Shown here: piece by piece, positions 1,991-55,127 of the stretch | Layout of the letters: every line of letters begins with the position of its first letter | Numbering within the stretch: position 1 is the stretch's first letter | NCBI GenBank assembly: GCA_903813345.2 | Contig: CAIIXF020000001.1 | Location: 4,526,001 to 4,590,000 of the forward strand | Direction of reading: 5' to 3' | Origin: Owenia fusiformis | Lineage: Eukaryota | Length of the DNA stretch: 64,000 nucleotides | Made by a program: the position numbers and the translations under genes | Notes under the pieces: model-generated | Databases searched by the model: none | Told to the model about the DNA's origin: nothing | What the model saw: only the letters and a program-made list of their open reading frames with translations

Positions 1991-4900
1991 TTAGTTGTAA
2001 TCAAGGTGGCGGGGACTCGCTGCTGTGCGTGACATGGTATGTGATAGACTTCTCATACTGTCTGCTAGTTTTTCAAACTCTTCCCATTTTCTACTGTGCA
2101 TTTCAGTTTCAGTTTCTTTCATTTTCTCTATGCTACCAACTTTATTCTCAAGTGTGAATATGTGGTTCCTTAGTCGTAAAATCTCTTGTTCCTTGTCTTG
2201 TACCTGCAATTTAAGTATAGAACTTACAATTTTAAGTTTTAGAACTATTGATTGAACTATCCCTATCAATTTACAAATCAAGGAACCCATTTACATTTTC
2301 CTTGAATTCTTGTGGCTTGCTCCACTGAATGAGATATTTGTGGAACTTGAAGAATAAATTAGAAATTTACAGATTTGTATATAACTTTTTAATTTAGTTG
2401 AGCTTTAGGTTTTGTTTTATTATCAATCAGTCATTTCATTTCATTATACTGCAAAATTTCAAATGAAGTGGACCCCTAAGGTATGATTATTCAGCTTAAA
2501 CTTATATTTCTTTAAAGCTTTAAATATCTTCAATAGATATTTTTATACCAACAAACAAAAGAGACCCCTAGTCCCTTTGTACAATTTCCCACCTGTTTTG
2601 TGAGCTCAGAGACATGGTCTACAAGGAGCATCTTATCTCTACGCAGTGAAGTGTTCTCACTCTCTGTCACTGAGTGTACGCCTTGCACCTCTGCTAGCCG
2701 TGACTGTGTACTGGACTGATTAAGTTGGATGCTACTGTTCAGTGACTCAGCCTTGGATAGCTGAAACAGGAATGTGACTTGTAAACAACTTATGCACAAC
2801 ACATGATAACTTGACATAACATGTCGGTTTCCCAGAGAAACATCTATTAAGTATCAGCTGAAAAGCACAGCCTGGTCCCCATTAGCCCAACACATAAATG
2901 TTTTTCCCTGACTTGTTCATGACGTGGCAGCCCTGTACAAAGTGTACATGTACTATCAAACTGATACCTAATGTAATGGACTAGATACAAGGAGAAATTA
3001 TCTGATTTTTAATATTCAATATTTAGTAGGGATGGGACGGTTCGTTTCTGTTCGGTTCGGTTTTTCGGATCATCAGCCGTCGGTTCGTTTTTTTGGTTCG
3101 GTTCATTCATTTTAAGGATTTGTATTGATTGACATGATTAGCTGCTTTGTCTCTGACTTCACTGCTGACTATTCACAATATTTTATAGATGGAATTTTAT
3201 GTTATAGTATTTCATGAACAATACATATTATTTAGAATACACGACTAAAGAATATAGTACCAGGGACCACATGATTGATTACCGAGGGATACGAATACGC
3301 GGATACGAAACAAATCTAGTAAACGAGTGAGCTAGCAACAGACAAGACAGACAAGGTAGGGACTAGGAATATCAAAAATGTTGCTGTAAAACAGTGTTTT
3401 TAACTGTTTTATTGATACTTGACCAATGAAATATTAATCCGAAAAGGATCCGAAAAGCTGATCCGAAAGTAGGGCTGTGATCCGAAAACCGATCCGAAGG
3501 CTATGAACCGCGGTTTTTCGGTATTTCGGTTATCCGTCCCACCCCTAATATTTAGTCAAAGTGGTGTAATTTTTGAAATCTTGACACATAAAATCATATC
3601 TAGAAATGTGGTTTTCAAAATCATTTATATCTACTTCGAAAAGTGAATTATCGTTTCTTTTCTTGTACTGGCCAGATAATGTTTTCTTTTACTGGACATA
3701 TTTTCAAATGTATAACTATCAGATACATACGGATAGTTATGAAAAGTGACCTAATAAAATTAGTGAATATTAAACTTTAGAGGAACTTTTCCCTATATCT
3801 GCCACCTAATCTGACCTAAATTAACTACATGATGGTGAAACTGGAAACTTACTACTGGCAGCTTGGTAAATGAACTAGAACTAACCTGTTCCATAAGGCT
3901 CCTGCATCTGTCTTGCTCTGATTGTAGTAAAGCTTTGGTCTGGTTCACCTCAAACTGAATTTGTTTTATCTTCTCATTGGCGTGTACTAATTCTGTGATA
4001 TTCTGTGATTTTCGCACATCTATGTTTTCTCGTAAACTTCTTTCCTAAAATCAAATAAGATACAATTTAGATTATCTTCCCTATATGTGAACTGAAATCT
4101 ATTTCATAACTTAATCATGCTATAGTGTCAGGTCATATACAGTACTTCACATGAACATAAAGTGCTTTAAAATTTGAATAAATTGAGTGTTTGATTTTGT
4201 AACAATTCTGTGCAATTTGTGTTAAGGACATGCCAAAACACTGACAGTCCTCTCATGGACACATACCCTCTCTACTTGGTTCCTGAGCTCAATGACCTGC
4301 TGGTTGAGTAACGAGTTCTCAGATACAAGATGGGAGCTGTCATCTGAGAGTTTTGTGCGGAGGTATCGATCTTGATCTGCCTTCATCTCAGTCTCTTTAA
4401 GTTTCTGTCTTAGCATCTGGACTTCCTCCTAATCATTTAAACAAAACTTAATGTCAACATACATTGATATATCATATATTTTTTTTTTAATCACATTGTT
4501 CAATGTTTTCCGCTGTTCGGCTTTTTATAAAACAACTTTGAAATCACAATACTACTATGACATAGCACTGTATTGTTTCTTACCCTAAGATCATTGACTG
4601 TCTTGTCATGCAATATAACATTGCTGCTGTAATATTTCTCCTCTAGTTCTCGTAGATTAGATTCTGTTCTCAACATGTCTGACCTCTTCTCCTCAAGAGC
4701 AAGCTGAGTTAACTTGTGCTGTTCAATCCTTTGGTCCAACTGAAAATATAATAATATCGTCGTGGTGAATAATGGAATATGTATTTATTACAAATACAAG
4801 AAATCGATTGAAATACATATGCTAGACTGTATATCGATAACTAAAAATGTTAAACCAATAATCATATATTTAGAAAAATAGCCTATTAAAATGCTCAAAC

Positions 4901-7900
4901 ATAATGCATTGTTGTAGTATTCTAATCATACAACTGGAAAGACTTCACAAGTTTAACTGGTACACTCTTTGCGAAACTGCTAAAGTTAACCTAAAATCAT
5001 GCAATAATTTGCTCCAATGGTACTTTTTTCACTATGCCATGTATTTTTCATTTATATAGAAAATGGTCAAATAAAAGTGGACAAGTCGTTTTTGAGACCA
5101 AGGTTTAAGTTTTATTTACAAAATTGTATTTAGTGGCAAATTGATTAACTTTTGATGTGTCATTTTACAATAGTGCCATGTTGTTCTGAAGTTAAAATCA
5201 GATTTGCCGTGGAAACAATGTATGTGCTGACGTTATATCCCTCAAAACATGAAATTTGGGATTTTTTTGGCCTTCATAAGTTGACCAGATACTGTGCATC
5301 CAATCGTAAAAGCACCAGCCTTGCTGTATACAAAGAATAACTTGATCAAACCTACCTGGCTTCTAAGAATTGAGATCTTGTGTTCTGCATTCCTCAAGGC
5401 TTGGGCAGATTTATCCATCTCACTACGAGCCTCTATCATCTGAGTATCTTTCCTTGAGTGTTCCGTCTCTAACATGGTCTTCTCCTTCTTCAGATTCACT
5501 AAATCTTCCATTAAGAGTCTTTTTTCACGGTTGTGTGCATCTATAATGGAATAGTTAAAAGAGTCAGCAACACCGTATATTCAACACCTAGCTTAGATCA
5601 TTCATTTGAAAAATAGGGGGGATTGTTTAAGCTGATATTTGATTGAAAAATCTTATGTACTTCATTTCTATTTACCAATCCAACATATTGTCAAAGTGCA
5701 GACAGTGACTACTGCAGTATTTGTTGCAAAGCTATCTCGGTGGGAATAACATAATTAGTGCTTAATGTATAATATTCAAAACCATACAGTAAAATTTGTA
5801 AAATGAAACACCTCTTTAGTAGAACACATCTGTAAGTGGAACACTTAAGTGAACACTGAAAGTGTTCAACACTACAGGTTTTACTGTATATTAGTTAAAG
5901 TACCTTCCTCTTCCCTGAGACGGTCAAGAGCACGACTCTTTTCAGTAGAGATTGAGTTAAGATTAGAATCCTTCCTTGCAACCTCAAGATGGAGACCATC
6001 GACCTGGGCCTGCATTTGCTACAAAGATATCAACGTATCATCAATAATTATGAATATGGCATGTTTGAGTGCATCGATATAAATGTATTAATGCAAATGT
6101 ATTCACTTGTGAATATCTGACCTAGATTCTAAAGCAAAAATCCATGGGAAAGTGGTTTAAACCAATGGAAATGAAAGTATGAAATCATCAATTTTCATCT
6201 GCACTAATAACATGTTTTTTTCTATATGTATTTTTTTCTAGCAGGAATGCAAATGAACTTTGTACATATACTGGTACATGCTCAACTTACTCTTAGTTTG
6301 CCAAGCATTCTCTCAGCTTCAGCAGACATCTGTGGATGCATATCTGTTGCCTTGCGAGCCTGCTCACGCGTACACATAGTTAAGGAGAAATTATACTTCC
6401 AAGTACTATAGTATCACATGATAAGGTCGCTTCGAAATGTTTAACACTGACTTCTGACTTTTTTTATCATAATATATCTAAATAATTTTTATATTAGTAA
6501 AACAAATTTAGTAATGGATTTATTTAATCTTATTTAGAAGCAGAATGCATAATACAAAATCAAATGGGTTAAACATAACATGCAGTAGGCATGTCAGTAA
6601 ACTTTTTTTGTGAACAGCCAAAACCCATGCACTAATTATACATATAAATCAAGCAAACATGTGGGATGTGGCCGATTCCAATGCTGAGAATAGAGGATAT
6701 AGATGGTTGGCCTCTAGCTCCAGGAAGTAGACCTGCTGTTGTAAGTTCTTGATGTACTCACTCTCCACATCTTTACTGATATCACCCATGCTGTAAGCAA
6801 ACATTGGAACATACAACCGCTAAGCATAAACTAGATAATATGGAGGTAAAGGAACATGTTTTTGAGAGAACCTTTGATATATTAACACACTGCGTCAAAT
6901 TGTAATAATATGTTTTGTAAATAATTTGAATGGAACAATAAGCAATAAAAATATAAGAAATATGTATTATGACCCCAGGGATTACTGCCCCGTTCTTGTT
7001 ATTTTTCCAGGGGGAACTGATTATAACTATTTTTATAATCAATCGGGTAAGTTTATAGTGGGAATGAGATAAATAGTCTCCAAATGATCATAGTTCTACA
7101 ATTTCATGTACAAGTTCTCTTTAAAACGTGTAACTTAAATTCTCTAATATGATATTATAAATGAACTGGTTGGTATGTCTCATAGCATACAACTCCTATG
7201 CTTTAATAAGTTGTTTAAGGGACCATTAGTCAATATTTCTCTTTTCTCTCAAAATATTATTAGCAAAATTTTCAGAGTGACCACCTCCCTCTCCCAAAAT
7301 ACAATTGAACATTTATTGAGTTTTTTCCAATGAAGAGTTGATTCATGTATGTTGAAATCTAATATCTTTTTTTAGCCTTTTCCCAAAATGGAATTAATTT
7401 ATTTTATGGGTGTAGATTGAGCACATATTGACATTGTCCCTAGCCAAGATCTCATTATAACATGCAATTAAAGAAACTGATTTTTCTACTTATCATTCTA
7501 ACATGAGAATGACCTTGGAATCAGGAAAGATTAGCACCCAGTAACCATTTATCATGCTTTTCAGTATAAGAACAGTTTCTCTAAGTTCTAAACAATAACA
7601 TAATGATGAAAATAAACAAAATAGTTCTCATACATTAAAAAATAAAATATGAAAATGTTATAAACATTAAAACCATAACCCATGCTTATACTACAGTATA
7701 TCTATAATCTCAGTGTTCTCCCTATGATTTCCTTCTCAACTGGATGCAAATCTTCTATTTTGCCCTTTCTGACTAAGAAATGTCTAGGATTCCAGTTTTG
7801 AAATTAGATTACTGAATATTTTTTTACACGAATTTTCATTAAGATTTTAACTGCAAGAATACTTAAAAATAAATCTTGCAGCAGGTTCAATGCTGGGGAG

Positions 7901-18000: not shown

Positions 18001-21000
18001 AAGGTCTACATTGTACATGAGTAGTTGTACTTACATGTATTTCAGACTAAAGATCGGGAGGTTGACTTTGATGTTGAGACTGCCATCAAAGTGTGTAGGC
18101 AGGCTGGGTACTACAAACATGCTTTGTTCCTGGCTAAGAAGCACTCCCAGCATGACTGGTATTTGAAGATACAACTGGAGGACCACAAGGACTACCAGGA
18201 GGCATTGGAGTATATTGGAAAACTAGAGTTTGAGGCAGTGAGTTATAATATATTTGATGGTTGTCATATCACACTGTAAATGTAATAGTCTATGATGAAT
18301 TAATTGTGATGGTAATTACTATGAGTATGATTGCATTATACAAAATATAGCTGCAGAATGTAAGGGAAAAATGGATTTAAATCTTGAGATGCAAAAATTG
18401 TCTTGTCATGAAATGTTTTTGGTTGTTGCAGAACATCTGTCTGAGAGTCCAAGTTGTACTGAACCTAGTATATAATAACTCCATTGGAGATCATTATGTT
18501 CTTGAATCTAGTATTGTTATAGATTTATATTTCAAAACCATCATTCATTCCCTCTACTCTACAATGGTACATTTTTAGACAGAGAATAATGTGAAGAAAT
18601 ATGGTAAGATCCTGGTGTCTGAAGTACCTCAACAGACTACTGATCTTCTCAAACGACTTTGCACAGACTACAAGCCCAGTGATAGTAAGTGAACTAGATG
18701 TTTGTATTATTCAGATAGAATAGGAGACACTGTATATGGCCCATGTTCTGTGTAGACACTTTGCATGGAATTGCTTTTTTAAAATTTGAATTTAAGAAAT
18801 TGACTCTAAGCTTAAATTATTGCTCCTCTATGCATAGCAAAATAGTTTATATTTATTGTTTGTTATTGTACACTTATATGAATAGCACTCATACAGCAGT
18901 TGTACTCCAGCTATTTTCTAAGGGGAAAGTATACTTTTTGGGGTTGGATTTTGACCAAAATGTGTTCTGTCATCAGTTTTGGGCATTTAATTTGGAATAT
19001 GGCAAAAACAAATATTTTTTGGTAGATTTATCCTCAATTTTTGTTGAGAAAATATAACATGTGATGTGAAACCATGATTTTCATAGTCTAGCTACAAGTC
19101 CTTATGAGCCCCCCCCCCCTCCCCACTGCACACCTTCCAACATGTGTTGCGTTGGTGAAGTAGATGAGGGGGTCCACTACAATTTTTATTAAAAGAACAG
19201 TTGAAATTAAAATCGAATAGTCCAATCCTGCCCCCTGTGCCTAAGTAGATGTTATAGGAATCTATGTCATGAGCTTACAAGGTACTTGGTTACATTTTCA
19301 TAAATAACTTTATCACTACTTTATTACTTTTGACATTTTTTAGTTCCCATTGTGCATTATTTTATAAGCTCAGGCTCCAGGCCCAGTCTTAAATAAAATT
19401 TTTACTCTGTTTTTACATGCTCCTGCTTTATTGGGTGTTTGTTTATTGCATTGCGGGTCATAAACATTGAAAGTACATACCTGTTAACATGTATATGTTA
19501 TTATGTCACCACCACAATTGGTGACATATTGTTATTGTCTCCAACTTTTTTGTGTTCAACAGTTGGTGTCTGGCAGTCAGTGTGTGGTGTGTCTGTAACA
19601 AATGGCATGTGATCACATTTTGCATGTTAATGCCTTATACGGGGGTATATACATTGTATTCCAAAAATGATAGCTAGTCATTTGTGAAGTTAATTGGATA
19701 TTAACCAGCAAACTAGTTCTTTTTAAGTGTTTATGTCTCATCTTTGATTGTATGTTTGTGCATACATTGTATGTTTACTGAATGTGTTGTCTAACTTTTC
19801 TCTTTGCTTGTTGTTCTTCAGAACCTTTGGTGGATGCTAGAACATTAGAAGGTACATATATTTCCCTACTATGTACTTAAATTATTCTCTACATGTTGTA
19901 TTAGCTATAAGGTGTGGTTTTTAAGCTCTCACAGGAGGTATTTTATTGCCCTGTTTTATTGATATCAAATTATTTGATGAGTAACTTATCCTTATGTTTT
20001 CAGTCATATGAAAAAATATTGTTTTCATAATGGCCCCAGTTTTAACCTCAGGATTCAACATTTTCCAGTCTCATGAAAAATGATAACAATAAAACCTATG
20101 TGAGCTAAATAGCTATATGCTACTATCAATTTACATATGGTGTTGCATGCATGTTAAAACATAGCAATCATTCAAAAGTCTACCATACTTTTGTACTTCA
20201 ATGCATTTTTTATATAGTGATAATTTTTTGAACTTGCCTGAAATCACTTATTAATTTCTAAACTGTATATGCTTTTTAAGTCCCTTCAATGCATAATAGA
20301 TAGCAATTTATCTCCTGTTCCCCATTCATAACTGAAGTATTTTTTGTTTCCCCATTTGATATGTTCATATTACATTTTTTCAATGATTTTATGTCATTTA
20401 TAATCAATCTAATGTTGTTATTGCTTTGCCTTTTTCATTATTCATTTCTTATATACTGGTACATCTTTCTTATCTCTGTATGCAATTTGATATCCATGCA
20501 TGTGATAAATAATCTATTTTATTTATTTTTTGCATTGTATGTTCATGTATTGATGTAGTCAGGTTTCCTAAGACAAGGGAGTTGTTTAGCCCAATTTCGT
20601 GTTAGGGATGGGGCTTGGATTTTCTAATCTATCCATATTTTGTACTTTAACATCTGTACTGTTTGATTTTTTTAGGAGAAATTCCCAAAATATTAAAAGC
20701 CAATGCTGAGGAATTTATTCACATTTTTGTCAACAATTCGAAGAAATTGACAGAGTTTCTTGAGCATATGGTTAGGGTAGGTCATTTCCAATACATTCAG
20801 TCAACATACACGTATTTTCTGGATATTATTTTAAAGATGTGTCTTTTTTTTTAGTTATCATTTTGAAATTTAATTTTGAGATTCATTTTCCAAACATTCA
20901 TGACATAGTCAGAAACTTTAAAATTTGCAATTTCAAAAATTCAAAATCATGTACACTCATGTATGTATAGGACTTCCCTTTCTATCTTTTAGCTGCAACC

Positions 21001-24000
21001 AGGTTCTAACAGCCTTGTTTACAACACTCTGTTGGAGTTATATCTGCATGATTATGTACATGAACAGAATAAAACAGTAAGTTGATTGAGGTTGCCTCCT
21101 TTGTTTTACTACTAAATTCTGCACATAATCGCTTTCATTTTAATGCAATACAGCAGTGCAAAGTATAGGATTTAATATTGTAGAAGTCTAAAGTATACAG
21201 CATAACTATTGACAAATAATTTTTTATTTTATACTATACTATAGTATAAATGTATTGACTGCTGTCCTCTCATCAAGTTTTTATTTGTGAATATAATAAT
21301 TGAATCAACACATGTACATGTATATGGACTTTACTGTTTTTAGTACTGTTTTATGGTGACTCTGAACTTATTCTTATTTCTAGGTCCAGGAATCAAAGGG
21401 AAAGATAACATTAGACTTGCTTCAAAATCAAGATGTAAGTTCATCTTTTCAATGTAGTTGAGGAATATAGTTGCATTTCTGAATTGAACCATATAAAATC
21501 AACGAAGCTTAAAAGTTTAAAGATCCAAGTTAAAACTACACGTCCCTCAAATCTAAGCCATTGCATTTGCATTGAGTTTGGTATGTTATATATACTGTAC
21601 TTTTATATAATACAATGAATGATTCCAGGCTGGCTATGATATTGACCAGGCCTTAGTGCTGTGCCAGATGAATGACTTTAAACCTGGCATTCTTTACCTC
21701 TATGAGAAGGCTAAACTGTAAGTTGTGAGTGAATAGCAAGTACACATCCTTCTCATACATCTATTATATCACTATGTTAGGCCGTTTATTAGGTTCTATA
21801 AGTCAGTTACCCTTTCAGAAAAACATAATTTAATAATTAACAAAATATTTTGATCCTTCCTGTACCATGTATTCTACCATAATATGTAAATATCCACATA
21901 TGAGTTTGAAAAATATTACCTCTCATATTTTATTGCAAAAAGTAATCTAAAATTGACTTGATGTAAGATTATAAATGTCCAGCCACTGGTCCTTGGAAGT
22001 GATTAATTGTGCACACAGCATTGTCCGTAGGGAGTTATCTTCTCTCTGATGTATGCCTTATCAGTACATTCATACGCTTAGGATGTTCCACGGATCCTGC
22101 AATATGTCAAATTAAAAATACTATATGAGATTGTTGTTTGTGATATCCTTTCTTTATTTTTCTTTATTTTCTTATTTATCTGCAGGTTTAAGATATTTAA
22201 CTAATAAAATGTATGAACATAGAGATTATCATATATGAGGTTCCGGATATTGGAATTATCCTGAGGACCTACAGCCCTCGGGCAGATATATTATATTGGC
22301 CAAGGTCTGTTTATCCCATACCAATTGTACAGTAATTATGCGAACGTTACAAAAATGAACAAATATGCGAACGGCAATTATGACGTAGCGGGCAGATTAA
22401 AAGTGATCTTGTCTTTCAAGTGATCTGGTCTCACTTTTCTAAATTCTGTATCTTCTTTTAAGTATTACACTAGCCTGTTATTTTCTACATGCTCTTCTAA
22501 CATATTGTCTATACAGTGCATACAATTTGAAGAGTGTGAACTGTGAAATCCATTTTATCTCATTCCAGAGATCTATGACATCCTAATCGCATCACAAATG
22601 ACCTAAAAATGGTGGTCATTAGGACTTTGAAATTTTTCATTTTCATGATATTCCTGCTCATTTACTTTAACAATGGTTGTCTAAGGACCCCCTCTGTGAC
22701 TGTTACTGATTTTTTCATATACTCATTTTTCCAAAAATTAAAGATAAGTTCATACTTGATCTGTTCGGCATGCATATTGGACAGCATTTCCCTTTGGGAA
22801 TGTACAAGCGTCCATTACAATGGACATAAAGAGGACAGTTACTAATATGGCATTTTCGGCTCCGCTTATGTTGCACTGTAATTCCTGCAATATGATACAA
22901 ATATTTCATTCTGTTGAGATGAATTCTTTGTACAGTATAGCCCTACATGTAGGTATTCCCTTACATCTAAGAATGGCAAGGGAGTATCGCCTCATCTAGC
23001 TTCATTAACCATGTGACCCTGTTTTGACCAATCACACAATTACAAGATGATATTGATATACCGAATGTCAGATCATTTTGAGTGATATCAATTTTATTAT
23101 ACAAGTTAATATCAAATACATGTACCAACAAGAGTGAGCATAGCGAATGAATGTTAATATTTGATATCTACTATGTGATTAAATAATATCAGAAGAAATT
23201 ATTGGATATTGGGTTCATCCCATGATTACAATCAAAATTCAAATAGATATTTGCTTGTTTTACCTTCAAGCCCTGCAAGTGTTTTTGTTCTTTTTATAAG
23301 GCAGCCATTATAGTGTTTTGAATCTACCACCCAAAATTTGTTAGTTAATCTCATGATATCAAATGAACAAAAAATTATTCATGCATATTATTTTGCATTT
23401 TTCTGTGTCCCACCTTTTGATCAGACTAACCTTGGCATTCCATTAGGCAAAACACAATGCAAATTGCACCAATGAAGATCCTCATTGTACAGCTTCAATT
23501 AAGTTGAGTTGTGCCGTTTTGCGTTAACTTTCTCCTACAGGTATAACGTTGTTCTGAGTCAAAGTCAAAAATGAAATGCATCTGATTAATAAACCTTCTT
23601 TTATATTCCTCTACAAAGCTCTGAATTCTGTTGTATCGTGAATAAACATAATATTACTATTGTTCAGGTATTGTCTGTGACATTAGATAATTTCACTGTG
23701 TCATAGTTTTACTTGTATAACCCATCAAATAAGATATAGATAATGTTCCTGTCCATTTGTTTGCATTTATTTTATCCCCTCTGTAACTTATCTATTTATA
23801 TCCAAAAATTAACTCAAATATGGCCAGTCCAATATTCTGCCAAACTTTATTTGATTTGATTTTACAGCAAAGCTCTGATCAAGATGAATTTTCAAAAATC
23901 TTTTTTAAAAACTATTATGATTGTATGTTTTCTATGAGATTATATACACACTAGCATTGTCATCATTAAGTTGTGTAGTACTTTGGAAAGCTCATGTCAT

Positions 24001-27000
24001 GATTATTAGACTCCAGATGTTAGACTCCAGATGAAATCTGGAGTCTATTGTTTTCGTCAGTTTTCTTATTCTTATTCTTATTATTCTTTTTCTAAACCAG
24101 TTTTCTCAATAACCATACGGTCTTCAGTAAAGTCAATCATTTGGTCAATTTAGGTCCAGTATCTAGTTCCTCGCAAATTGGGTCAAATTTTTATATAGGT
24201 CAAAGGTCAAGAACTAGGTCAAATCCAGTACTTTGTCACTTTTTTCGATTTACTCGGTCGTCCTTCAATATTTTCGATCCGGGCTTTTTTCATTGTGTTC
24301 CTCATAAAAAAGTAGGAAATTTAGGGTGATTTAGTTTTTTGATATCTCAAACCGATTTCGAGATATCAGTGTCTGAAAACGAGGTCCAAAAAAAGCTCTC
24401 CGAATTAAATGTCTAGGATATCAGTCTTATAGGATATTTTCTCAGAATTCCGAATCTGAAAACCAAATTCGAATCAGACTTCCGGTTCGGAAGTTATGGC
24501 GTTTTGAAAGCTCAAAAATCGCTAAAGGACGATTCTCGGCTTGGAGAACAAAGTTCATCAATCTAAATGAGCATTATCCCTGCTTCGGACAAATTTGATT
24601 TTTTTACATAATATAGATTTGAATGTCTTCTTTTGAATAGTCATAATTTAATTTGGGTGATATTTCTAGATATTTTGCAAAAAAATATAAGCGCGGTACA
24701 CTGATGAACTTCTTTTCCAAAATCGAGACTTGTAATTTATTGAATCGGTCTAATTGAGCGTTATCCCTGCTTCAGACCAATTTGTTATTTTTACATCTTG
24801 TAGATTTAAATGTCCTCTTTTGAATATTCATAGTTTAATTTGGGTAATATTTCTATATTTTTCATGAAAAAAATTATTAGCCCAGGAGACTGTTCTCCAA
24901 ACCGAGAATCGTCCTTTGGTGCCCATGTTAAGTCAATGGGAAAAAAGATTTATTTGAAGTGAAAAATACGAAATATAGACTGCGTTCAGCTAAATATAAT
25001 GAAAGCTTTTAAAAGAATGGGACCTCAAAAGCCATCTAGCTTCAAAATTTGGACACCAAAATGCCTAGGTCAAAATCTAGGTCAAATTCAATGTTTTTCC
25101 TTATTTTTGCTATTCTGACACTACAGATTAATTATATTCTTCGAAATTTTGTATACATGTAGCCAAGAGTGCGCTTATAGTGTTAGCCTTTTGCCGTCAG
25201 AAAGTATTTTGCCCCATTTTTGAGATACGGTGTCCGAAAAGTAGGTCAAAATAAAAAATTCTCCAAATTTAACGTATGAGTTATGAATTAGGGGTAGAAT
25301 TTTGTCAGGAATCCGAATCTGCAAATCAAATTTCCATCTGACTATATTTTATATTCTATCCTATCCTTCCTTCCTTTTTAATCCATCCATCCATCCATCC
25401 ATCCATCCATCCATCTTTTGCTGGATGACTTAGCTTATTTTGGATGACTTGGCTTATTCTGGATGACTCGGCTAAAAAAAGTCTAGATCTGGAGTCTGAA
25501 ATTGAACTTGTTCAATTTCCAAAATCTAGTTATTATTTACTAGCATGACTTTGATATATGAAAACATACTAAACGAAGACATAAACTTTAATTGAATATG
25601 ATGAAATGCTGAGTATGCATGACATTGGCTTATAATTCAAGCTACAGTGATATTCAATTAAAGGATATCATGTCAAGTAAATGAAAAAACTTCAAACAAG
25701 GCAATTTATTTCAACAGGATATTTTATATGAGGATTATTATCCCACTGATCATAGTTCGGATATACAGTATATAGAAAAGCCCTCCATCCGTCCATCCAT
25801 TTGTGTGTCCGTCCGAAAAGCCCTCCATCCGTCCATCCATTTGTGTGTCCGTCCGAAAAGCCTTCCATCCGTCCATCCATTTGTGTGTCCGTCCATCAGT
25901 CTGCTCAATAACTTTAATGCCATTTCACAGATTTGGTTCAAATTCTATATGCTGATGCTTTATGGCCAAATGACTTGCTTGAGAAGGGATTTTGAATATG
26001 GTGGCTTAAATCGAAATGATACTATATCCATGGTTGTGTATAATTTCAGTTATCAACAGATCCTGAGGTACCATATGGAACACAATGAGTACACACACAT
26101 CATAGAGTCTTGCAAACGCTTTGGGTAAGTGAAGTTGTATTTAAAAATGATCTCTCTATCAGTGCTCTCTATTATTGTAGCAACTAGTTTATGCACAAAC
26201 TTGAATTCATGTACAATAAAACAAAATATAACAAAAAATTAACTGATCCCAAGCTACAGTAGCAGTGTGCCCTTAAGACAGACATACAGTGAAACCTGTA
26301 GATCTGAACACATCTCTTTGTGAACACTTTTTTCTTGGTCCCAAATTTTGTATCTCTCATTGACCCACAAATTTAAAAAGCTTGTTTTTAAAAATGTGAA
26401 CACCTACTAATCTGCACACTTTTGGCTAGCTCCAGTGTTGTTTGGATTAGACAGGTTTTACTGTACATAAAACTACCTTGCAATAAACTGAAAATCGGTT
26501 TGCCCCTGTCTTTTGACAATTTCAATGTGCATAAATAATTTGGATATTTTATGCCAAAATACATGACTCATGAATCATGACTCACTTTAAAGGATCGTGT
26601 TTATATAACTAACTAACTAACTAACTAACCAACCAACCAACCAACCAACCAACCAACCAACCAACCAACCAACCAACCAACCAACCAACCAACCAACCAA
26701 CCAACCAACCAACCAACCAACCAACCAACCAACCAACCAACCAACCAACCAACCAACCAACCAACCAACTAACTAACATACATGTAGTTGATTAATATCT
26801 ATGTCATATATTAGATGGTAATCTGATCCTGGTGTTAAAATGATGGAGTAATTCAATTATAGAGTGTCTGAGATTATATATGTCAGTTTGAATATACAAT
26901 GTATTTTATATTTGTATATTTTTGTTGCAGTACTGCTGATCCTCATCTTTGGGTGCAAGCATTATCTTACTTTGCCCGTAAGCAGGAGAACTGCAAGCCA

Positions 27001-29436
27001 CAAATAATGGAAGTGTTGTCACATATAGATAAGAAGAACCTACTACCACCTCTTCTGGTCATACAAACCTTGGCACATAATTCCACAGCTACCCTGGCTG
27101 TGGTGAAGGTACAATAAACTTAGATACTTAAGTACATGTGTTACTATTGTAATATAGAATCAACAAGATATAAGACATACTTACTATTTTGAAGTACCCC
27201 ACAATCCTCTGAACACAAAGAACCTAAGTCTAAATTGAAATGTGTACATCTGAGCTGATATAATATTCAGATGTTTGATTGTCATACCACAAAATTCTTC
27301 AAATTCATAATAATAGGTTGAGCATAAACTCTTTTACCGTTGATATTATATTTCAGGACTATATCATCCGACGACTCCAAGTAGAGAGCGATCAGATAGC
27401 TGAGGATGAGAGACTTATCAAACAGTATAAGGAAGAGACAGAAAAGACTCGTAAACAGATTGAGGAGCTAAAAACAAGGTGAGAAAAAAATTTTGGTCAA
27501 ATAAATTTTCACTTAAAAGTTATTATAAAGTGTTTGCTTTAAGTTATGTTTTTTGTGTAAGGCCTGTTTATACTTGTACAAGTTTTAAGTGCATCAAATT
27601 TAATGCCAGTTATAACTCAACCTGACATGACACAAATCCTTTACACCTCTTGTATCTCTACCCAAATCAATTGGATACCTGAATTGAAAGTGTACAACTG
27701 TATATTTAGACTGTATAATTACATTTCAGTGCAAAGATATTCCAAGTGTCAAAGTGCAGTGTATGTAACCATCCATTGGAGCTGCCCTCAGTTCATTTCC
27801 TCTGTCAGCATTCCTATAAGGTTTCATTGTAGGGTTGTAGTATATGTTAGACTGTATAATTACATTTCAGTGCAAAGATATTCCAAGTGTCAAAGTGCAG
27901 TGTATGTAACCATCCATTGGAGCTGCCCTCAGTTCATTTCCTCTGTCAGCATTCCTATAAGGTTTCATTGTAGGGTTGTAGTATATGTTAGACTGTATAA
28001 TTACATTTCAGTGCAAAGATATTCCAAGTGTCAAAGTGCAGTGTGTGCAACCATCCATTGGAGCTGCCCTCAGTTCATTTCCTCTGTCAGCATTCCTACC
28101 ACCAACAGTAAGTCATTCCAAAATAAAGAAATAATCACTCTTTCAGATTCTGAAGTTTATTCCACCTATTATATTCATTCTATGGCATTGACTTCCTTTT
28201 TGCATTAGAATTTTATATGTTAATAACGTGAATAATCACTGATTCAAAATTTGATGCTGACTTTAGTACAAAAGTTGGCATCATTGTTTCATCATTATAG
28301 TCTCTTAGGATAACTATAAGGAGTCTGACAAATGACATGTTTTTTTTTCTATTTTTCAGTTGTTTTGAAAGTTATGCTGAGAATGACTCTGAATGTCCTG
28401 CATGTATGCCAGAGAATAGGTAGGTTGTTTGTTTGTTTGTTGTTTGTTTGAGTATTGTTTGTTTGATCAGCTGGTTACTTTTTTGTGGCATGGTAGATAG
28501 CTTTCTCAACTTTCTCAACCAATAATTGCCACAAATGTTCAAAATAATCAATCAATTTTAACCTATTAACCCTTAGTTCATGTATATCGACATTAAACTT
28601 TCATCTCCATGTACATGTTCATGATTTTATTGCAGAAAATTACTAGACATAATCCGTGCTCAGGAGCAGAGTAAAGACCTCCATGAACAGTTCCATCATC
28701 AGTTAGAGCGTGCCTCGGATGGTTTCTCTGTTGTGGCTGACTACTTTGGTAGAGGAGTCTTCAATAAGGTTAGGATCATGTCTAGTCTTGCTTCAAGACC
28801 GTTGGCCTGGGTCTCTATCTAAACAACACAGTTGTAAGAGTAGATAGTCCTGGGTTAAGCGAGATTAAATCATGTCCAGATGTGTCTTTGCATTATTTAA
28901 TTCCAAAAGCCCCAAAATTGGATATTTTAATTGTATTGCAGCTTCCAACTTAGTGTTACCCTGATGAAAAATAGTTTAGCTTAATTTCTTATATTTCTCA
29001 ATTATTTGTAGAATTTACTGTTCAAGTACAGTAAAACCTGTATATCTGAATACTCTTGTGGCTTTCTTGTAATCTGAACTTTTCTCAATCTGAACATTTC
29101 CTTGGTTTCGTTGACTTACATACTAAGAACACTGAACACATCTTCTGGCCCCAATTTTGTTTTCTCTCACTGACTTACATACTAAGAAACCATCAAATGT
29201 GAACACCTGCTTATCTGAACACTTGGCTGGTCCCAGTAGTGCTCAAATTAGACAGGTTTTACTGGACATATGATTCATGTGTATCATAAATTGGTATTTT
29301 TTCTTGAATGTACTTCCAGGTGACACTTATTACTGACCCACCTGGTAAGGGCAGGACGTCTGAGAGTCTCATAGACAATAGTTTACAGAGAGATCTACTA
29401 TTAGCGCAACAATCTTTGAATCCGTTTGATGAATAA
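12024..29436 (+). CDS. VPS11: Vacuolar protein sorting-associated protein 11 (HOPS/CORVET core), 26 exons, ~936 aa
   Basis: Starts [15 protein letters not shown]; clathrin-repeat region [52 protein letters not shown]-terminal [31 protein letters not shown]...[22 protein letters not shown]. Exons: 12024-12038, 12387-12461, 12868-13041, 13364-13414, 13647-13715, 14130-14227, 14431-14668, 14995-15128, 15288-15429, 15679-15758, 16053-16206, 16639-16785, 18046-18237, 18579-18684, 19822-19851, 20676-20776, 20993-21076, 21384-21434, 21629-21717, 26050-26124, 26931-27108, 27357-27478, 28012-28107, 28360-28419, 28636-28768, 29320-29436; all phases consistent. Confidence 0.97.
16883..17828 (+). mobile_element. 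Non-autonomous Helentron-type (HINE/DINE-like) element
   Basis: 5' GGCTCACACAGTGAGCC palindrome, (GTCC)n-like tract, 3' subterminal inverted copy CACTGTGTGAGC followed by a short hairpin AGGACCGTGGCTCCT; T-rich flanks. Confidence 0.7.
22035..23485 (-). CDS. Nested antisense gene: 81-aa secreted cysteine-rich prepropeptide (half-VWC-like Cys pattern)
   Basis: Exons 23431-23485, 22756-22884, 22035-22096 with GT-AG phase-1 introns give [89 protein letters not shown] at 23598-23605(-); AATAAA near 21930(-). Confidence 0.8.
24003..25530 (+). mobile_element. Non-autonomous Helentron-type (HINE-like) element
   Basis: 5' AGACTCCAGATGAAATCTGGAGTCT palindrome, (TTCTTA)n tract, internal duplicated block and (ATCC)n, 3' ATCTGGAGTCT plus hairpin GAAATTGAACTTGTTCAATTTC. 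Confidence 0.75.
25775..25895. repeat. 40-bp tandem repeat x3
   Basis: GAAAAGCCCTCCATCCGTCCATCCATTTGTGTGTCCGTCC repeated three times. Confidence 0.9.
26607..26777. repeat. (AACT)n(AACC)n microsatellite
   Basis: Directly visible. Confidence 0.98.
27706..28098 (+). repeat. 141-bp tandem triplication of the VPS11 RING exon acceptor and most of the exon
   Basis: Identical ttacatttcag|TGCAAAGATATTCC starts at 27730, 27871 and 28012; only the third copy reaches a GTAAGT donor. Confidence 0.95.
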
Positions 29437-45093: not shown

Positions 45094-46290
45094 ATGCCAA
45101 GTGCTACAGAAAAAGGTATATAGATGTAAACTGAAATATTCTCTCAAGACTGATTTCATATCGGAAGATTTTCCTTGGATTAAATCAGCTGCTAGTAAAT
45201 GTGCTCATTTTGAATGGAATTAAATGATTGTGATAAACTTCCTTTCAAGGTTCTTTTTGAAGGTGTTATATTTCAATAAAATTATACTGTACTATTGTGG
45301 TTATTATTCTAAGATTTTATTTTTGTAAGATTAGTGTCAGTGTTAAATAATTAATGATTTGTTAAAATTTGTACATTTTATTTCAGCGTTTTTCACTGTT
45401 TTTGTTGTTGCCAGCATCTTCTATGTGCTCTATGCTGTCATGATGGTACGTCGCTGGGAATTCACATTTCCTGTGGATTACACCTCAATAACCAATTGCT
45501 CACGATGTGGATGCACAGCAATGAAGAAGCAGCATTACATCATTTTGGCAATTCCTCGGAGTGGTTCAACTATGCTTAATGATATTATATGTCAGCATCC
45601 AGATATTGGATGCACTGACGAACCTCTACATATTGAAGAGTTGCTGCCAAGGGGCCTTATGGGAGCCTCCTCAGATAATGTAATGCAATACCTGCTACAA
45701 TCGGTTCATAAACTGGATTGTAATAAAGTTTATGGGTTCAAAGTTTTCACAGACCATTTATACGAGGCTAATATACCACTCAAAGATTTGATCAGGATAT
45801 TGAATAAACCTAAAATTATTTTACTTACAGAAAAAATATATTGGAGTCATTTGTTTCATTAAAAATCAGTCTAAGGACAAAAATTTGGAATATTCACTTG
45901 GATAGCCTGAAAAAAATTCCTCTCCCAACACCTCAAAATGTCACCCTCGCTTTGGACGAATATGTTTACTGGACAAGTAAAATTGAAAAGCGCTGGAAGG
46001 GGCCTCTTAAGGAGTTTGATACATACCCCAATAATATGAAAACCATGGTGACATATACGGACATAACTGAAAACAGGGATGTTATTATACCAAAACTTGT
46101 AGAGTTTTTAGGGTTCAAACCACAGTATTTTAGTCCAATGAATATTAAATTGAATCCAGCGCCGCTGGAAGATAAAATTGCAAATTATGGGGAGTTCATG
46201 GCTCAGTTAGAGAAACACAATGTTTCAATGTATCTAGATGTAGCACAAATGCTTCGATCAATTCATAAAACAAATGCTCGGAAACATTGA
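45094..46290 (+). pseudogene. Stf0/NodH-like sulfotransferase copy 1, 1-nt frameshift near 45827
   Basis: Mini exon 45094-45115 (MPSATEK) plus exon from 45387; PAPS loop IPRSGSTML. CTTACAGAA versus copy 2 CTTTATAGA shifts the frame; the rest is colinear with copy 2. Confidence 0.8.
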
Positions 46291-47478: not shown

Positions 47479-49383
47479 ATGCCGAGTGCTGCAGAAAAAG
47501 GTATATTAATTGAATTATTCTCTCAAGAATGATAACATCTTGGAAGATTATTCATAGGAACATTTGCTACATACACTTGTCCAAAAGGAATTAAATGATT
47601 CATATAAACTTGTTTTCATTGTACTTTAAAAGTACTTTTTTGATAACAATGTATAAATTTTTATGTCACCACCAAAAAGTGGTGACATATTGTTATGGTA
47701 TCCGTTTTTTTGACGGAGGTTGGTGGATGGTGATCGGCATCTGTAACAAATTCTTATTTGAACTTTTGATTAAAATTGAACTTCTAATCCAATTTCTTTT
47801 AAAATCATCTACATGTTTTAAAATGTTCAAATCTGACTTTATATTTAAGATTTGACCTTCAATGACCTTTTCAAAGTCAAAAAGGTCTTTTTTCAACTTG
47901 CTTCAAATTGACCAATTTTTTTACAAAATTATCTACAAGTTATCAGAAGTTCAAATCTGACTAGATTTGAGATTTGACCTCAACAAAAAGGGCCTTTTTT
48001 TAACTTGCTTCAAATTGACCATTTTTTCAAAATCATCTACAAGTTCTCAGGTTCTCAACGGTTCAAATCTGACTATAAATTTGACCTTAAATGACATTCT
48101 TAAGGTCAAAAAAGATTTGACCTTCAATGACATTCTCACGGTCAAAAAGGTCTTTTTTCATCTTGCTTCAAATTGACCAATTTTTTTTGAAAATCATCTA
48201 CAAGTTCTTGGAAGTTCAAATCTGACTTTGGATTCGAGATTCGAGGGTCAAAAAGGTATTTTTCAACTTGCTTCAAATTGACCAATTTATTTTTTCAAAA
48301 TCATCTACAAGTTCTCAGAAATTCTAATCTGACTAAGATTGAACTCATAATATTGTGAGCAACAAGGTGGTGACATTTTGTCATGTTAATGCCTTGTATT
48401 TTTCTAAAAGAGCGACGCTATTACATTTTAAAATTATATTAATGATTCGTTATAGGTTCATACATTTTATTTCAGCGTTTTTCACTGTGTTTGTTGTTGC
48501 AAGCATTTTATATGCACTTTATGATGTCATGATGGTACGTCGCTGGGAATTCACATTTCCTGTGGATTACACCTCAATAACTAATTGCTCACGATGTGGA
48601 TGCATAGCAATGAAGAAGCAGCATTACATCATATTGGCAACGCCTCGGAGTGGATCAACCATGCTCAACTACATTCTATGTCAGCATCCAGATATCGGTT
48701 GCACTAATGAACCACTGCATAATAAGTTAGAGTTGCTGCCAAGGGACCTTGTTGGAGACTCCTTGGATAATATAATGCGATACCTGTTACGATCGGTTCA
48801 TAAACTGGATTGTAATAAAGTTTACGGGTTCAAAGTTTTCACAGACCATTTATACGAGGCTAATATACCATTAAAAGATTTGATCAGGATATTGAATAAA
48901 CCTAAAATTATTTTACTTTATAGAAAAAATATCTTGGAATCATTTGTTTCAATGAAAATCAGTCAAAGGACACAAATTTGGAATATTCACTTGGACGGCC
49001 CAAGAAGAAATCTACATCTACCGCCTCAAAATGTCACGCTTACTTGGGGTGGGTATGCTCTATGGAGAAGTAAAATTGAAAAGCGCTGGATAGAGCCTCT
49101 TAAGGAGTTTAATACATACCCCAATAATATGAAAACCATGGTGACATATACAGACCTAACTGAAAACAGGGATGTTGTTATACCAAAACTTGTTAAGTTT
49201 TTAGGGTTCAAACCACAGTATTTTAGTCCAATGAATATTAAATTGAATCCAGAGTCGCTTGAAGATAAAATTGCAAATTATGGGGAGTTCATGGCTCAGT
49301 TAGAGAAACACAATGTTTCAATGTATCTAGATGTAGCACAAATGCTTCGATCAATTCATAAAACAAATGCTTCAAAACATTGA
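47479..49383 (+). CDS. Stf0/NodH-like type II membrane sulfotransferase copy 2 (~309 aa)
   Basis: Exon 47479-47500 (MPSAAEK, phase 1) plus 48476-49383; N-terminal TM helix, 5'-PSB loop ATPRSGSTML, GFKVF, 3'-PB-type LYRKNILESFVS, VTYTDL. Confidence 0.88.
47661..48397 (+). mobile_element. HINE-like element with satellite array, in intron of sulfotransferase copy 2
   Basis: Same termini and monomers as 42253-42815; absent from the copy 1 intron. Confidence 0.8.
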
Positions 49384-52411: not shown

Positions 52412-52541
52412 GAATTATGACACAAGGATAAGTAAACCTTGATCAAGGTTAGATGACAAAAATACACTAACACTGATGCCAATTACTAGTAATGTCTTAA
52501 TATTGTTCTACTGTTTTGATTAATGTTCTTTGTGAGGCATA

Positions 52542-55127
52542 TTAATCAACTTCCTCAATGGTTGGTCCTGAGCCTCCACTGCCGGCTCCTGGGGCTGCGC
52601 CACCCCCTGGCATACCTCCTGGCATACCACCAGGCATGCCATCTGGCATTCCACCGGGGGCACCTCCTGCAGCCTGGTACAATTTGGTAATGATTGGAGT
52701 ACACACACCTTCTACTTCCTTCTGCTTGTGTTCAAACTCATCCTTTTCTGCCAGCTGCAAATATGAACACAATAAAAAAAAAAAAAGAAAATGCTTGGAT
52801 AACCAATTTGATGCCCAGATCCCCTCTTACTTTGCTACTGCCTCTGCTGTTAGGCAATGATAATTACAAAGTTGTTTAACAAATTGAGGGAGGGATTAAT
52901 GAAGGGTTACTGAGCATAAAGCCACCTAAGTGTCTCGCAAATTGACTGCAATTGTGTGGACTGAACTAGACAGCGAGACAGCTGGGATGCACATGCTCAG
53001 TCAGAGACAAATCTTAATTATATCAAATTCAGATGAAGATGATTTTTACTTGACTAATAAAGGGGAGATTGATTTTACTAAAGTCATACTGATCAATGTG
53101 AATGAATGTACAATACATGTACCAAGATAAGAACTTTATGCCACATTATTCCATTAACTGAGAGACATTGAATATTTCATGTGGTAATTTTGTTCACCTT
53201 ACTTTGATAAGCAAAATAAACTGATATTTCTACAATCATCCAAGCATTACATTAAATTTTTCTCTGAAATAAAACAAAGATCACAAACCTGATTTGCATC
53301 GAGCCAGCTTATGACGTCATTACATTTATCTGTGATCGTTTTCTTGTCTTCTTCACTGATCTTGTCCTTCAACTTTTCATCTTCAACAGTAGACTTCATA
53401 TTGAAGGCATAGCTTTCAAGTGAATTCTTAGCACTAATTCTGTCTCGTTGGTCTTCATCCTCCTTTCTGTATTTTTCAGCATCATTCACCATACGCTCAA
53501 TTTCTTCCTTCGACAGACGACCTGAAATGCATTATGGTACATGTGTCGCAATAATTTCTCATTCAGATGTTCTGCAGCATCCAGCCAAAAGGCATGTAGG
53601 TTATCGCAGACAATTTCAAACGATTCTAACTTGAATTATGAATATTTTCTGATCTTGAACATTTGTGTATCTTTTAGATCCAATCATTATCTTCAAGAAA
53701 AGTAGCCTATACATAATGATAATTCAGTTAATTAGACCTAAGTGATATTGCTAGTTAAATATCTCCGAGTTTGTTTAACTTTATTATTACTGTATATAAT
53801 TTTCTTTTTAGATAATGAAGACAAGAAAATTCAACAACAAATCTTGAATATTTATTTTTTCAAGAGAAAGCTTACAATTGAATTGTTAAATGAATAGGCG
53901 CAAGGTATGGTAAAATATGTTAGGTCTTCTAGGATTTGTTGAATTTTCTTGCAGAAATCCCCAACTCCCCCTCCATCCATTTTGTCCGATCACCGGGCGT
54001 GGTCCCACTCTGGATTTTATATTTTTTTGAATATAACATATGGCCATTATTTCAATTTTGTGAGTCATTTTTTCTTAACTTAAAGTGTGTGCAAAACAAA
54101 GAATGAATTTCCAATGGCCAGCTTTTTAGATTGTGCATGGATCCTACATTACATCACCCAAAAGCCCCTATTTTAAAATTAAGTGTAATCTACTCACACT
54201 CACTTTGAGTAACTTCTGACCTGAGAACACTGTAACATCTCATATATGACATTATGGCACCTACCCTTATCGTTAGTGATAGTGATTTTGTTTTCTTTGC
54301 CAGTGCTCTTATCAACAGCAGATACATTCAGGATACCATTGGCATCAATGTCAAATGTCACCTCAATCTGAGGAACTCCACGGGGTGCAGGAGGGATACC
54401 AGTTAGCTCAAACTTGCCCAGAATGTTGTTGTCCTTGGTCATAGCACGCTCACCCTCATATACCTGGATCAGCACACCTATTGACACACAGAAAGAAAGG
54501 TATGGTATTATAAAATGAAGAATTCGAGAAGTTATTTCTAGAGAAAACACTCATCGAAACAACAACAGAACAGTCAACAAATGACCCTGAATAGAGACCA
54601 AGGATTTACCTGGCTGATTGTCAGAATATGTGGTGAATGTCTGTGTCTTCTTGGTTGGAATAGTTGTATTGCGCTTGATAAGAGCAGTCATGACACCTCC
54701 AGCAGTCTCAATACCCATAGACAATGGCGCTACATCAAGCAACAACAAGTCTTGGACAGCCTCATCTTTGTCACCAGACAAAATGGCAGCCTGTATGGCT
54801 GAAACAAGTTAAATAGAAGTGCATTTCTTGTCTTACATTAATAACACTAGTAGCAATCTAGATGCAAGGACATCTCTGTATCAAGCTAGACATCTAACTT
54901 GTGGCACCAACATGAGTTTGCCATATATGGGTGTACCAACCATGAGTTCAGAAACCTTAGCATGATCATCTAATATGCATACCTGCCCCATAAGCCACAG
55001 CCTCATCAGGGTTGATGCTTTTGTTCAATTCCTTGCCATTGAAGAAATCTTGCAGAAGCTTCTGGATCTTTGGAATACGCGTAGACCCTCCCACCAATAC
55101 AATATCATGGACTCCACTCTTGTCCAG
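52542..55127 (-). CDS. HSP70: Hsp70/Hsc70 3' cassette A (end of nucleotide-binding domain, substrate-binding domain, GGMP repeats, GPTIEEVD); no 5' exons of its own seen
   Basis: Exons 54983-55127, 54610-54798, 54265-54477, 53289-53521, 52542-52754; signature [15 protein letters not shown]; no stops or frameshifts; canonical splice sites. Confidence 0.93.

Follow-up and report, generated by a model that had tools for sequence, protein, structure and literature searches.

Among the described systems closest to the locus reported here, the beta-defensins follow the framework C-x6-C-x4-C-x9-C-x6-CC and the SVWC proteins keep a whole eight-Cys single domain. SVWC proteins are reported predominantly from arthropods (PMC11515477). 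The VWC domain itself is represented here by VWC1 of crossveinless-2 (CV2), which has its Cys residues at positions 9, 26, 29, 31, 38, 43, 50, 60, 61, and 64 and the bonds of subdomain 2 at 26-60, 43-61, and 50-64 (PMC6270503). Subdomain 2 is described as making no contact with BMP-2 and as dispensable, since Clip and subdomain 1 alone bind BMP-2 with identical affinity (PMC6270503). Here we describe a candidate gene of the annelid Owenia fusiformis, found in a stretch of 64,000 nucleotides (assembly GCA_903813345.2, contig CAIIXF020000001.1, positions 4,526,001 to 4,590,000 of the forward strand), which we call the window and whose first nucleotide is position 1. The candidate has three predicted exons on the minus strand and lies antisense in an intron of VPS11, and the predicted translation of its second exon shows homology with the C-terminal half of VWC. 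The sequence features proposed for it earlier are confirmed and clearly not due to chance. We put the probability that it is a live, transcribed small gene at about 0.5.

A first-pass annotation of this DNA had proposed a TATA box, a signal-peptide exon, a Cys exon, a terminal exon, and a polyadenylation signal in compatible phases, and all of these are present on the minus strand where it had put them. When 21800-23750 was rebuilt by script, the three exons joined in frame to give 81 open codons, and the junctions (23431>22884 and 22756>22096) were the ones already proposed. The translation of exon 2 (P0001) has the Cys spacing C-x4-C-x5-C-x10-CC-x2-C, and the 41-residue, cationic, six-Cys core described in the first-pass annotation does lie between two KR sites, with a charge of about +5.7. 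After signal cleavage the predicted product would have 62 residues, six Cys, and a charge of about +12. Exon 2 is symmetric, of phase 1-1. It is reasonable to regard this as a compact, gene-like locus. The stop codon is in the last exon, so nonsense-mediated decay would not be expected. An upstream ATG at 23581 is close to the expected start site.

The identity of exon 2 is indicated by Pfam, in which the top match of its translation is VWC (PF00093), with 16.5 bits and an E-value of 0.011, over profile positions 28-57 of 57; at E-values up to 10 the only other match was a chance one to Amnionless. These profile positions, together with the module profile described below, bear out the earlier observation that the GKCCPIC ending resembles the C-terminal half of a VWC domain. 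Exon 2 does not encode the whole domain: its 16.5 bits compare with a Pfam cut-off of 27.6, and in place of the ten Cys of VWC there are six after the signal peptide, with no C-x-x-C-x-C of subdomain 1.

An exhaustive protein search with exon 2, covering 1.84 billion representatives at E-values up to 0.001, returned eight matches, four of which are real relatives: P0004, P0006 (from Abeoforma whisleri), P0007 (from the clam Ruditapes philippinarum, XP_060551671.1), and P0008. All four look secreted and carry 3 to 9 tandem six-Cys modules, as counted by pattern; P0007 has Kunitz and WAP domains besides its modules. The remaining matches (P0002, P0003, P0005, and P0009) lack the module; they are tandem-repeat proteins with scores summed over many weak stretches, the best single ones reaching 6.6-10.7 bits, and they were excluded from the module profile. 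A metagenome scan, in which 1 of 96 pattern matches passed, added a further sequence, L001, in which one open frame encodes a signal peptide, nine modules in tandem, and a TIL domain, and a distinct frame after it encodes a Kunitz domain. L001 informs on the module and not on orthology. Pfam gives a partial VWC match, to the C-terminal half, in P0004, P0006, P0008, and L001 as well. Exon 2 has the module signature C-x4-C-x4/5-C-x2-G-...-[IV]P-x-G-x-CCP-x-C, and it keeps all nine columns that are invariant in the comparison with the four relatives (C11, C16, G24, P29, G31, C33, C34, C37, and P39).

The eukaryote-like gene of L001, at 2347-4075 of its metagenome contig, is in its own right a good reference for the usual architecture of these modules.

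Because no single stretch of a database match is significant at library size, three local tests were made. A module profile was built from 22 modules of the four relatives and run against the 2128 open frames of at least 20 residues in the window; exon 2 came out on top, with 26.8 bits and an E-value of 4.9e-07, and the runner-up had an E-value of 0.06. The real peptide scored 28.9 bits, compared to a maximum of 14.6 among 5000 composition-preserving shuffles. The third test took the generic Cys spacing by which the C-terminal half of VWC is recognized (CC-x-x-C and three preceding Cys, after PROSITE): the real window has a single match, which is the candidate, and 32 of 1500 simulated windows have any; when G-x-CCP-x-C is also required, none of the 1500 has one. 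The window has no tandem array of modules: next to the one intact module lies a single frameshifted relic. Apart from exon 2, no further module was found below an E-value of 0.06 by profile, nor by eye among 31 Cys-dense frames.

Other sources were less informative. A search of the ESM Atlas with the peptide gave no usable match, and an AlphaFold2 model of the module, made from a five-row alignment, was too poor to help (mean pLDDT, 51.7; pTM, 0.20). A codon-usage likelihood trained on VPS11 versus introns placed exon 2 below the null mean, with 64% of open intronic segments scoring the same or higher, and placed exons 1 and 3 at 19% and 14% of those segments; this measure fails to separate exons from introns.

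Exon 3, to judge by several features of its sequence, is a decayed and frameshifted duplicate of the module exon. The third-best of the 2128 frames with the module profile (E-value of about 0.1) sits inside exon 3, in a frame other than that of the gene model, and reads KITPYGQCC where the module has viPeGeCC. The acceptors of exons 2 and 3 share CATATTGCAG/GA, where the slash marks the exon boundary, and the acceptor and first ~25 nt of the two exons align with a score of 29. Among the controls, 1 of 2000 shuffles and 2 of 904 real windows scored as high, as did none of 40 comparisons with true VPS11 acceptor regions (maxima, 25 and 20). A second, colinear match is found in the exon bodies, where TCCCAAAGGGAAATGCTGT is aligned with TCCCTACGGACAATGCTGT at 15 of 19 nt, corresponding to IPKGKCC and TPYGQCC; the relic core lies at 22015-22033. 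Counted from the exon start, TGCTGT comes at 98 nt in exon 2 and at 76 nt in exon 3, and this difference of 22 nt, equal to seven codons plus one nucleotide, accounts for the frame change in exon 3. On its 5' side the relic frame is shut by a TAA at 22080-22078. An alternative acceptor at 22076, the sole one that would put the relic frame in phase, scored -6 bits and was rejected.

The tail that follows SVEHPKR in the gene model is an out-of-frame reading of the old module that soon meets a stop. It follows that in the ancestor two or more module exons stood in tandem and that the second lost sequence and shifted frame; exon 3 descends from the 5' part of that second exon. Exon 2 keeps all of the conserved positions; of its duplicate, the acceptor and the first ~25 nt, which the model still uses, are preserved, and the rest has decayed. 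Since exon 3 duplicates exon 2, ITVQH-KR and SVEHPKR are copies of one exon-start linker. The first-pass annotation had read the two KR flanks as convertase sites; the sites themselves are present, but the duplication explains their symmetry, so that convertase logic is not needed and the convertase reading is weakened.

The start of exon 1 has the n-region MR, a 13-residue hydrophobic core, and C-Q-G before the exon end, with a mean hydropathy of 3.11, and from the -3/-1 rule we infer signal cleavage after G19. A scan of both strands (128 kb) with strict thresholds, namely, a hydropathy of at least 2.5 and a donor of at least 7 bits, found a single signal-peptide-like ATG exon, which is exon 1 of the candidate. 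A loose scan found 16 such exons, of which 4, including the candidate, have a phase-1 donor. At this rarity, an in-phase signal exon at most 1 kb 5' of the module exon and on the same strand has an expected count of about 0.02 or less. The 20 VPS11 introns of the window supplied the splice-site profiles, and all four splice sites of the candidate fall within the leave-one-out range of true VPS11 sites. Their scores are given in Table 1 with the coordinates of the locus.

Table 1. Features of the candidate locus and its host intron; splice sites were ranked among the AG or GT sites of both strands
Feature	Position	Strand	Remarks
Possible TATA box, TATAAA	23600..23605	-	120 nt 5' of the ATG; weak evidence
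Exon 1, coding part	23431..23485	-	ATG, 18 codons, and 1 base; donor AAG/GTTAGT, phase 1
Donor 1	23431	-	7.2 bits, top 2.0% of 6942 GT sites
Intron 1, 546 nt	22885..23430	-	Multi-copy repeat within, ~23010-23090
Acceptor 2	22884	-	8.65 bits, top 1.3% of 6829 AG sites
Exon 2, 129 nt	22756..22884	-	Phase 1-1; acceptor TTGCAG/G, donor CAA/GTATGA; linker, then one complete six-Cys module
Donor 2	22756	-	4.28 bits, top 12% of 6942 GT sites; weak
Intron 2, 659 nt	22097..22755	-	High-copy repeat within, ~22265-22355
Acceptor 3	22096	-	10.35 bits, top 0.5% of 6829 AG sites
Exon 3, coding part	22035..22096	-	Acceptor TTGCAG/G; split codon finished, 19 codons (SVEHPKR and basic tail), stop
Second-module relic	22006..22077	-	Open in a frame other than the exon 3 reading; then stop
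Stop codon TAA	22037-22035	-	Closes the exon 3 frame
Possible polyadenylation signal, AATAAA	21929..21934	-	101 nt 3' of the stop codon; weak evidence
VPS11 host intron, 4332 nt	21718..26049	+	Flanked by VPS11 exons that end at 21717 and start at 26050

The host gene was mapped with P0015, a partial 779-residue protein of Owenia fusiformis to which a clear VPS11 exon of the window is 100% identical. An exact alignment of this protein to the plus strand, with splicing, resolved 20 of 20 junctions to the letter. The candidate is antisense to VPS11 in an intron that is the 18th of the mapped partial model. It had been assigned to intron 19; the antisense nesting is correct, and the number would become 19 with one more 5' exon, which is likely because P0015 lacks the first few residues.

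Depth and haplotypes were taken from four runs, which are of genomic DNA, since contigs run unbroken across the proposed introns (X1 record 4, 22316-22912; X2 record 12, 22612-22985). The three candidate exons have a depth of about 10 and are single copy. The repeat in intron 1 reaches depths of hundreds to thousands (bins 22847-23428), and that in intron 2 exceeds 10000 in X1-X3 (bin 22265-22555), with loose ends at 22265 and 22355. With single-copy exons and intron repeats in the thousands, the exons are not part of a repeat. The same host intron holds high-copy repeats at ~24011-25756. A second haplotype, represented by contigs of X1-X3, is ~3.5% divergent in the adjoining intron and keeps the exon 2 frame and the six Cys. 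Its exon 2 differs by two synonymous changes, of which one falls in a Cys codon, and by a change of M to V that gives the CCPICVP form, as seen in L001.

Several other observations concern VPS11 and the repeats around it. At 19355-19645, 22265-22555, and 24011-25756, contig depths add up to 10^4 to 10^5 in each of the four DNA runs, compared to ~10 in flanking single-copy sequence; these repeats have many internal joints and are presumably transposon fragments. A 141-bp unit is repeated 2.8 times with 98% identity at 27700-28098 on the plus strand, inside a long open frame at 27561-28208. Each copy includes the same VPS11 exon-like segment, and residues 808-840 of the Tubulanus VPS11 (P0016) match 27719-27817, 27860-27958, and 28001-28108. 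P0015, which is marked partial, ends at 27413, before these repeats. Either a 3' VPS11 exon has truly been triplicated in tandem, or the assembly is at fault here. An (AACC)n microsatellite of 42.8 copies, with 98% identity, occupies 26607-26777 in a VPS11 intron.

The evidence for a live gene, transcribed from the strand opposite VPS11, is that exons 1 and 2 have neither stop nor frameshift, that the nine conserved positions are kept, that three of the four splice sites are strong, that decay has spared the part of exon 3 in use by the model, and that the second haplotype preserves the module. We consider the odds roughly even. A number of results weigh against a live gene. With regard to homology, the best single stretch at library size reached 24.8 bits, with an E-value of ~1.9 (in P0004); the E-value of the module profile is somewhat optimistic, since its source proteins were found with the query itself; and the Cys-spacing test, which is independent of the query, gives a p of just ~0.02 (32 of 1500). 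A word-indexed protein search with sequences of 41-132 residues found no candidate, and none of the eight matches of the exhaustive search was near-identical or from Owenia fusiformis. No ortholog or single-module relative appeared in the protein searches, which have low power with a 42-residue query. The first-pass annotation had expected gene finders to overlook the locus, and the collections do hold Owenia VPS11 and no exon 2 protein; the annotators thus did not call this gene, a point that also counts against it. As to the locus itself, each strand of the window has 0.90 TATAAA and 1.46 AATAAA per kb, so that both motifs add little; donor 2 is weak; the frameshifted second module means that part of the ancestral gene has already decayed; and the allelic changes in the coding parts of exons 2 and 3, at least two synonymous and at least two non-synonymous among the rows listed, are too few to show constraint.

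Many of the same results would be expected of a dead remnant of a tandem-module secreted-protein gene, one that has lost its transcription or its use, with exons 1 and 2 not yet disabled, and we regard this as a serious alternative to which we give somewhat less than even credence. It would account for the heavily decayed, frameshifted module copy in exon 3, the weak donor 2, the transposon-like repeats inserted in both candidate introns, and the candidate's absence from the annotated proteins in the collections; the few allelic changes listed show no constraint, and the relatives carry 3 to 9 modules by pattern along with other domains, never one. A remnant does not readily explain, however, why exons 1 and 2 are free of stops and frameshifts, why all nine positions invariant in the relatives are kept, why three of the four splice sites are strong, or why a haplotype ~3.5% divergent nearby retains the exon 2 frame and its six Cys. 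In addition, the decay in exon 3 hits exactly the part that is not translated in the old frame, and the acceptor and first codons are spared. The long multi-module, multi-domain architecture of the relatives, and the phase 1-1 exons typical of internal module exons, could also mean that exon 2 belongs to a larger minus-strand gene with other exons outside 21925-23605. This is very improbable in view of the module profile, which has no other frame in the window below an E-value of 0.06, and of the 31 Cys-dense frames, none of which looks module-like by eye except exon 2; moreover, an in-phase signal exon lies 546 nt 5' of exon 2, and a strong acceptor, a stop, and AATAAA lie 3' of it.

Chance is the least credible explanation, and we give it hardly any weight. 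An AT-rich intron might contain an open Cys frame with splice-like sites, in a window where TATA and polyadenylation motifs are frequent, where codon usage fails to tell the exons from open intronic segments, and for which no single-stretch database match is significant at library size. Such a coincidence would nonetheless have to produce a six-Cys spacing found in 32 of 1500 simulated windows, and in 0 of 1500 with G-x-CCP-x-C, together with a module-profile E-value of 4.9e-07, an independently rare signal-peptide exon, acceptors in the top 1.3% and 0.5%, and a colinear decayed duplicate 660 nt downstream.

If the gene is live, the three exons opposite VPS11 would encode an 81-residue pre-peptide, from which a 19-residue signal peptide would be cleaved and a 62-residue, very basic peptide (about +12) secreted. 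Its core would be one six-Cys module, corresponding to the last Cys of VWC subdomain 1 and the whole of subdomain 2. The locus would descend from a tandem-module gene, with exon 2 as an intact module exon; a second such exon, after a net loss of 22 nt and a shift of frame, now would supply no more than a short basic tail, a stop, and the 3' end. By analogy with the C6-C9 and C7-C10 bonds of VWC, three disulfides (1-4, 2-5, and 3-6) may form, in which the two Cys orphaned by the loss of subdomain 1 would pair with each other. Outside the cell the peptide, small, cationic, and presumably rigid, might bind anionic partners, for example, glycans of matrix or mucus or the surfaces of microbes, as suggested by its charge, the extracellular context of the module, and the inhibitor-type domains that accompany it in the relatives. 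That a free-standing, secreted, cationic half-VWC peptide was born by frameshift truncation of a tandem-module gene and serves in host defense or extracellular signaling from the intron of a housekeeping gene is a speculative proposal, and we hold it unlikely as a whole.

The first-pass annotation had gone a different way, with convertases cutting at both KR sites to release a 41-residue, three-disulfide antimicrobial, toxin-like, or signaling peptide, possibly one that binds BMP. The ingredients are there, namely, both KR sites, a 41-residue core with six Cys and a charge of about +5.7, and a plausible signal peptide, and the peptide weakly resembles beta-defensin 1 (17.2 bits and an E-value of 0.056 against PDB sequences). 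The KR sites, however, are copies of one duplicated linker, and the first of them is just 7 residues past the predicted signal cleavage site; the defensin alignment leaves the third Cys unmatched, and the framework differs. The suggested antimicrobial, toxin-like, and signaling roles find no support beyond charge and Cys content. BMP binding is disfavored, since the half retained here corresponds to the one not needed for BMP-2 binding in CV2: subdomain 2 of VWC1 stays off BMP-2, and Clip with subdomain 1 suffices (PMC6270503). Taken together, these points make a convertase-released peptide of this kind unlikely, though a good deal less so than a chance origin.

If the candidate is transcribed, it would be a small, secreted, Cys-rich gene missed by modern RNA-supported annotation and nested antisense in a housekeeping gene, and nested small peptide genes are a class that is systematically under-counted in invertebrate genomes. 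It would then also indicate that the C-terminal half of VWC can stand alone, a half that usually either sits silent beside the BMP-binding half or serves as spacer repeats in proteins of the inhibitor type. Should the half-VWC peptide reading be true, this would be the first stand-alone use of the half-domain found and a clean case of a peptide gene born by the decay of a larger gene. The history appears readable, from tandem module exons through a net loss of 22 nt and a frameshift to a new short basic tail. The locus also offers a caution, in that, where exons are repeated, a pair of dibasic "processing sites" may be nothing but their duplicated starts. Without transcription, the locus would be an ordinary gene remnant.

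Elsewhere in the window, two paralogous, intronless, sulfotransferase-like frames are found on the plus strand, at 45347-46290 and 48343-49383. The latter is intact, with 346 residues and Pfam matches to Sulfotransfer_3, Sulphotransf, and Sulfotransfer_1; the former is split into overlapping frames of 171 and 158 residues, as by a frameshift, and may be a pseudogene. On the minus strand, ~52540-54810 and 58680-60410 are by eye two tandem copies of the HSP70 family, close to each other and not identical, with the C-terminus GGMPGGMP...IEEVD. Open frames at ~2000-5600, also on the minus strand, are coiled-coil-like and rich in Glu, Lys, and Leu and are probably exons of a gene for a coiled-coil protein; one of them has weak Pfam matches below the cut-offs.

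Beta-defensins resemble the predicted peptide in being short and cationic, with six Cys and a CC near the end. They differ in the arrangement, as in the candidate one Cys follows the CC pair rather than preceding the array. Identity with a beta-defensin was rejected: human beta-defensin 1 gives at best 17.2 bits and an E-value of 0.056, with the third Cys of the candidate opposite a non-Cys residue and the fourth Cys of the defensin opposite Leu. The arthropod SVWC/Vago proteins are likewise small secreted proteins based on one VWC-type unit, and immune and cytokine-like roles are reported for them. This identity was also rejected, since no SVWC family is among the Pfam matches at E-values up to 10 and the Cys count is six; the candidate, moreover, comes from an annelid and not from an arthropod.

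The likeness to VWC itself is closer. The six Cys of the candidate correspond to Cys5 to Cys10 of CV2 VWC1, and the G-x-CCP-x-C ending is common to both. Cys 38-43-50-60-61-64 of CV2 give C-x4-C-x6-C-x9-CC-x2-C (PMC6270503), compared to C-x4-C-x5-C-x10-CC-x2-C in the candidate. Unlike a VWC domain, the candidate lacks Clip, subdomain 1, and its C-x-x-C-x-C, so that two of its Cys lose their usual partners in subdomain 1. In the titles and abstract openings of the papers that our literature searches returned, we found neither a stand-alone or tandem half-VWC module described nor a name for such a module.

The closest counterparts are the tandem half-VWC proteins P0004, P0006, P0007, P0008, and L001, which have the same module with all of its conserved positions and a signal peptide upstream; the closing motif CCPIC[MV]P is common to L001 and the candidate. 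These proteins have 3 to 9 modules and usually inhibitor-type domains, whereas the candidate has one intact module, one relic, and no other domain, and its composition is much more basic. L001 encodes its nine modules in one open frame, whereas the candidate has an intron between modules. On present sequence comparisons, the candidate is a member of an unnamed family of six-Cys half-VWC modules, and it is solitary, unlike all of the relatives found.

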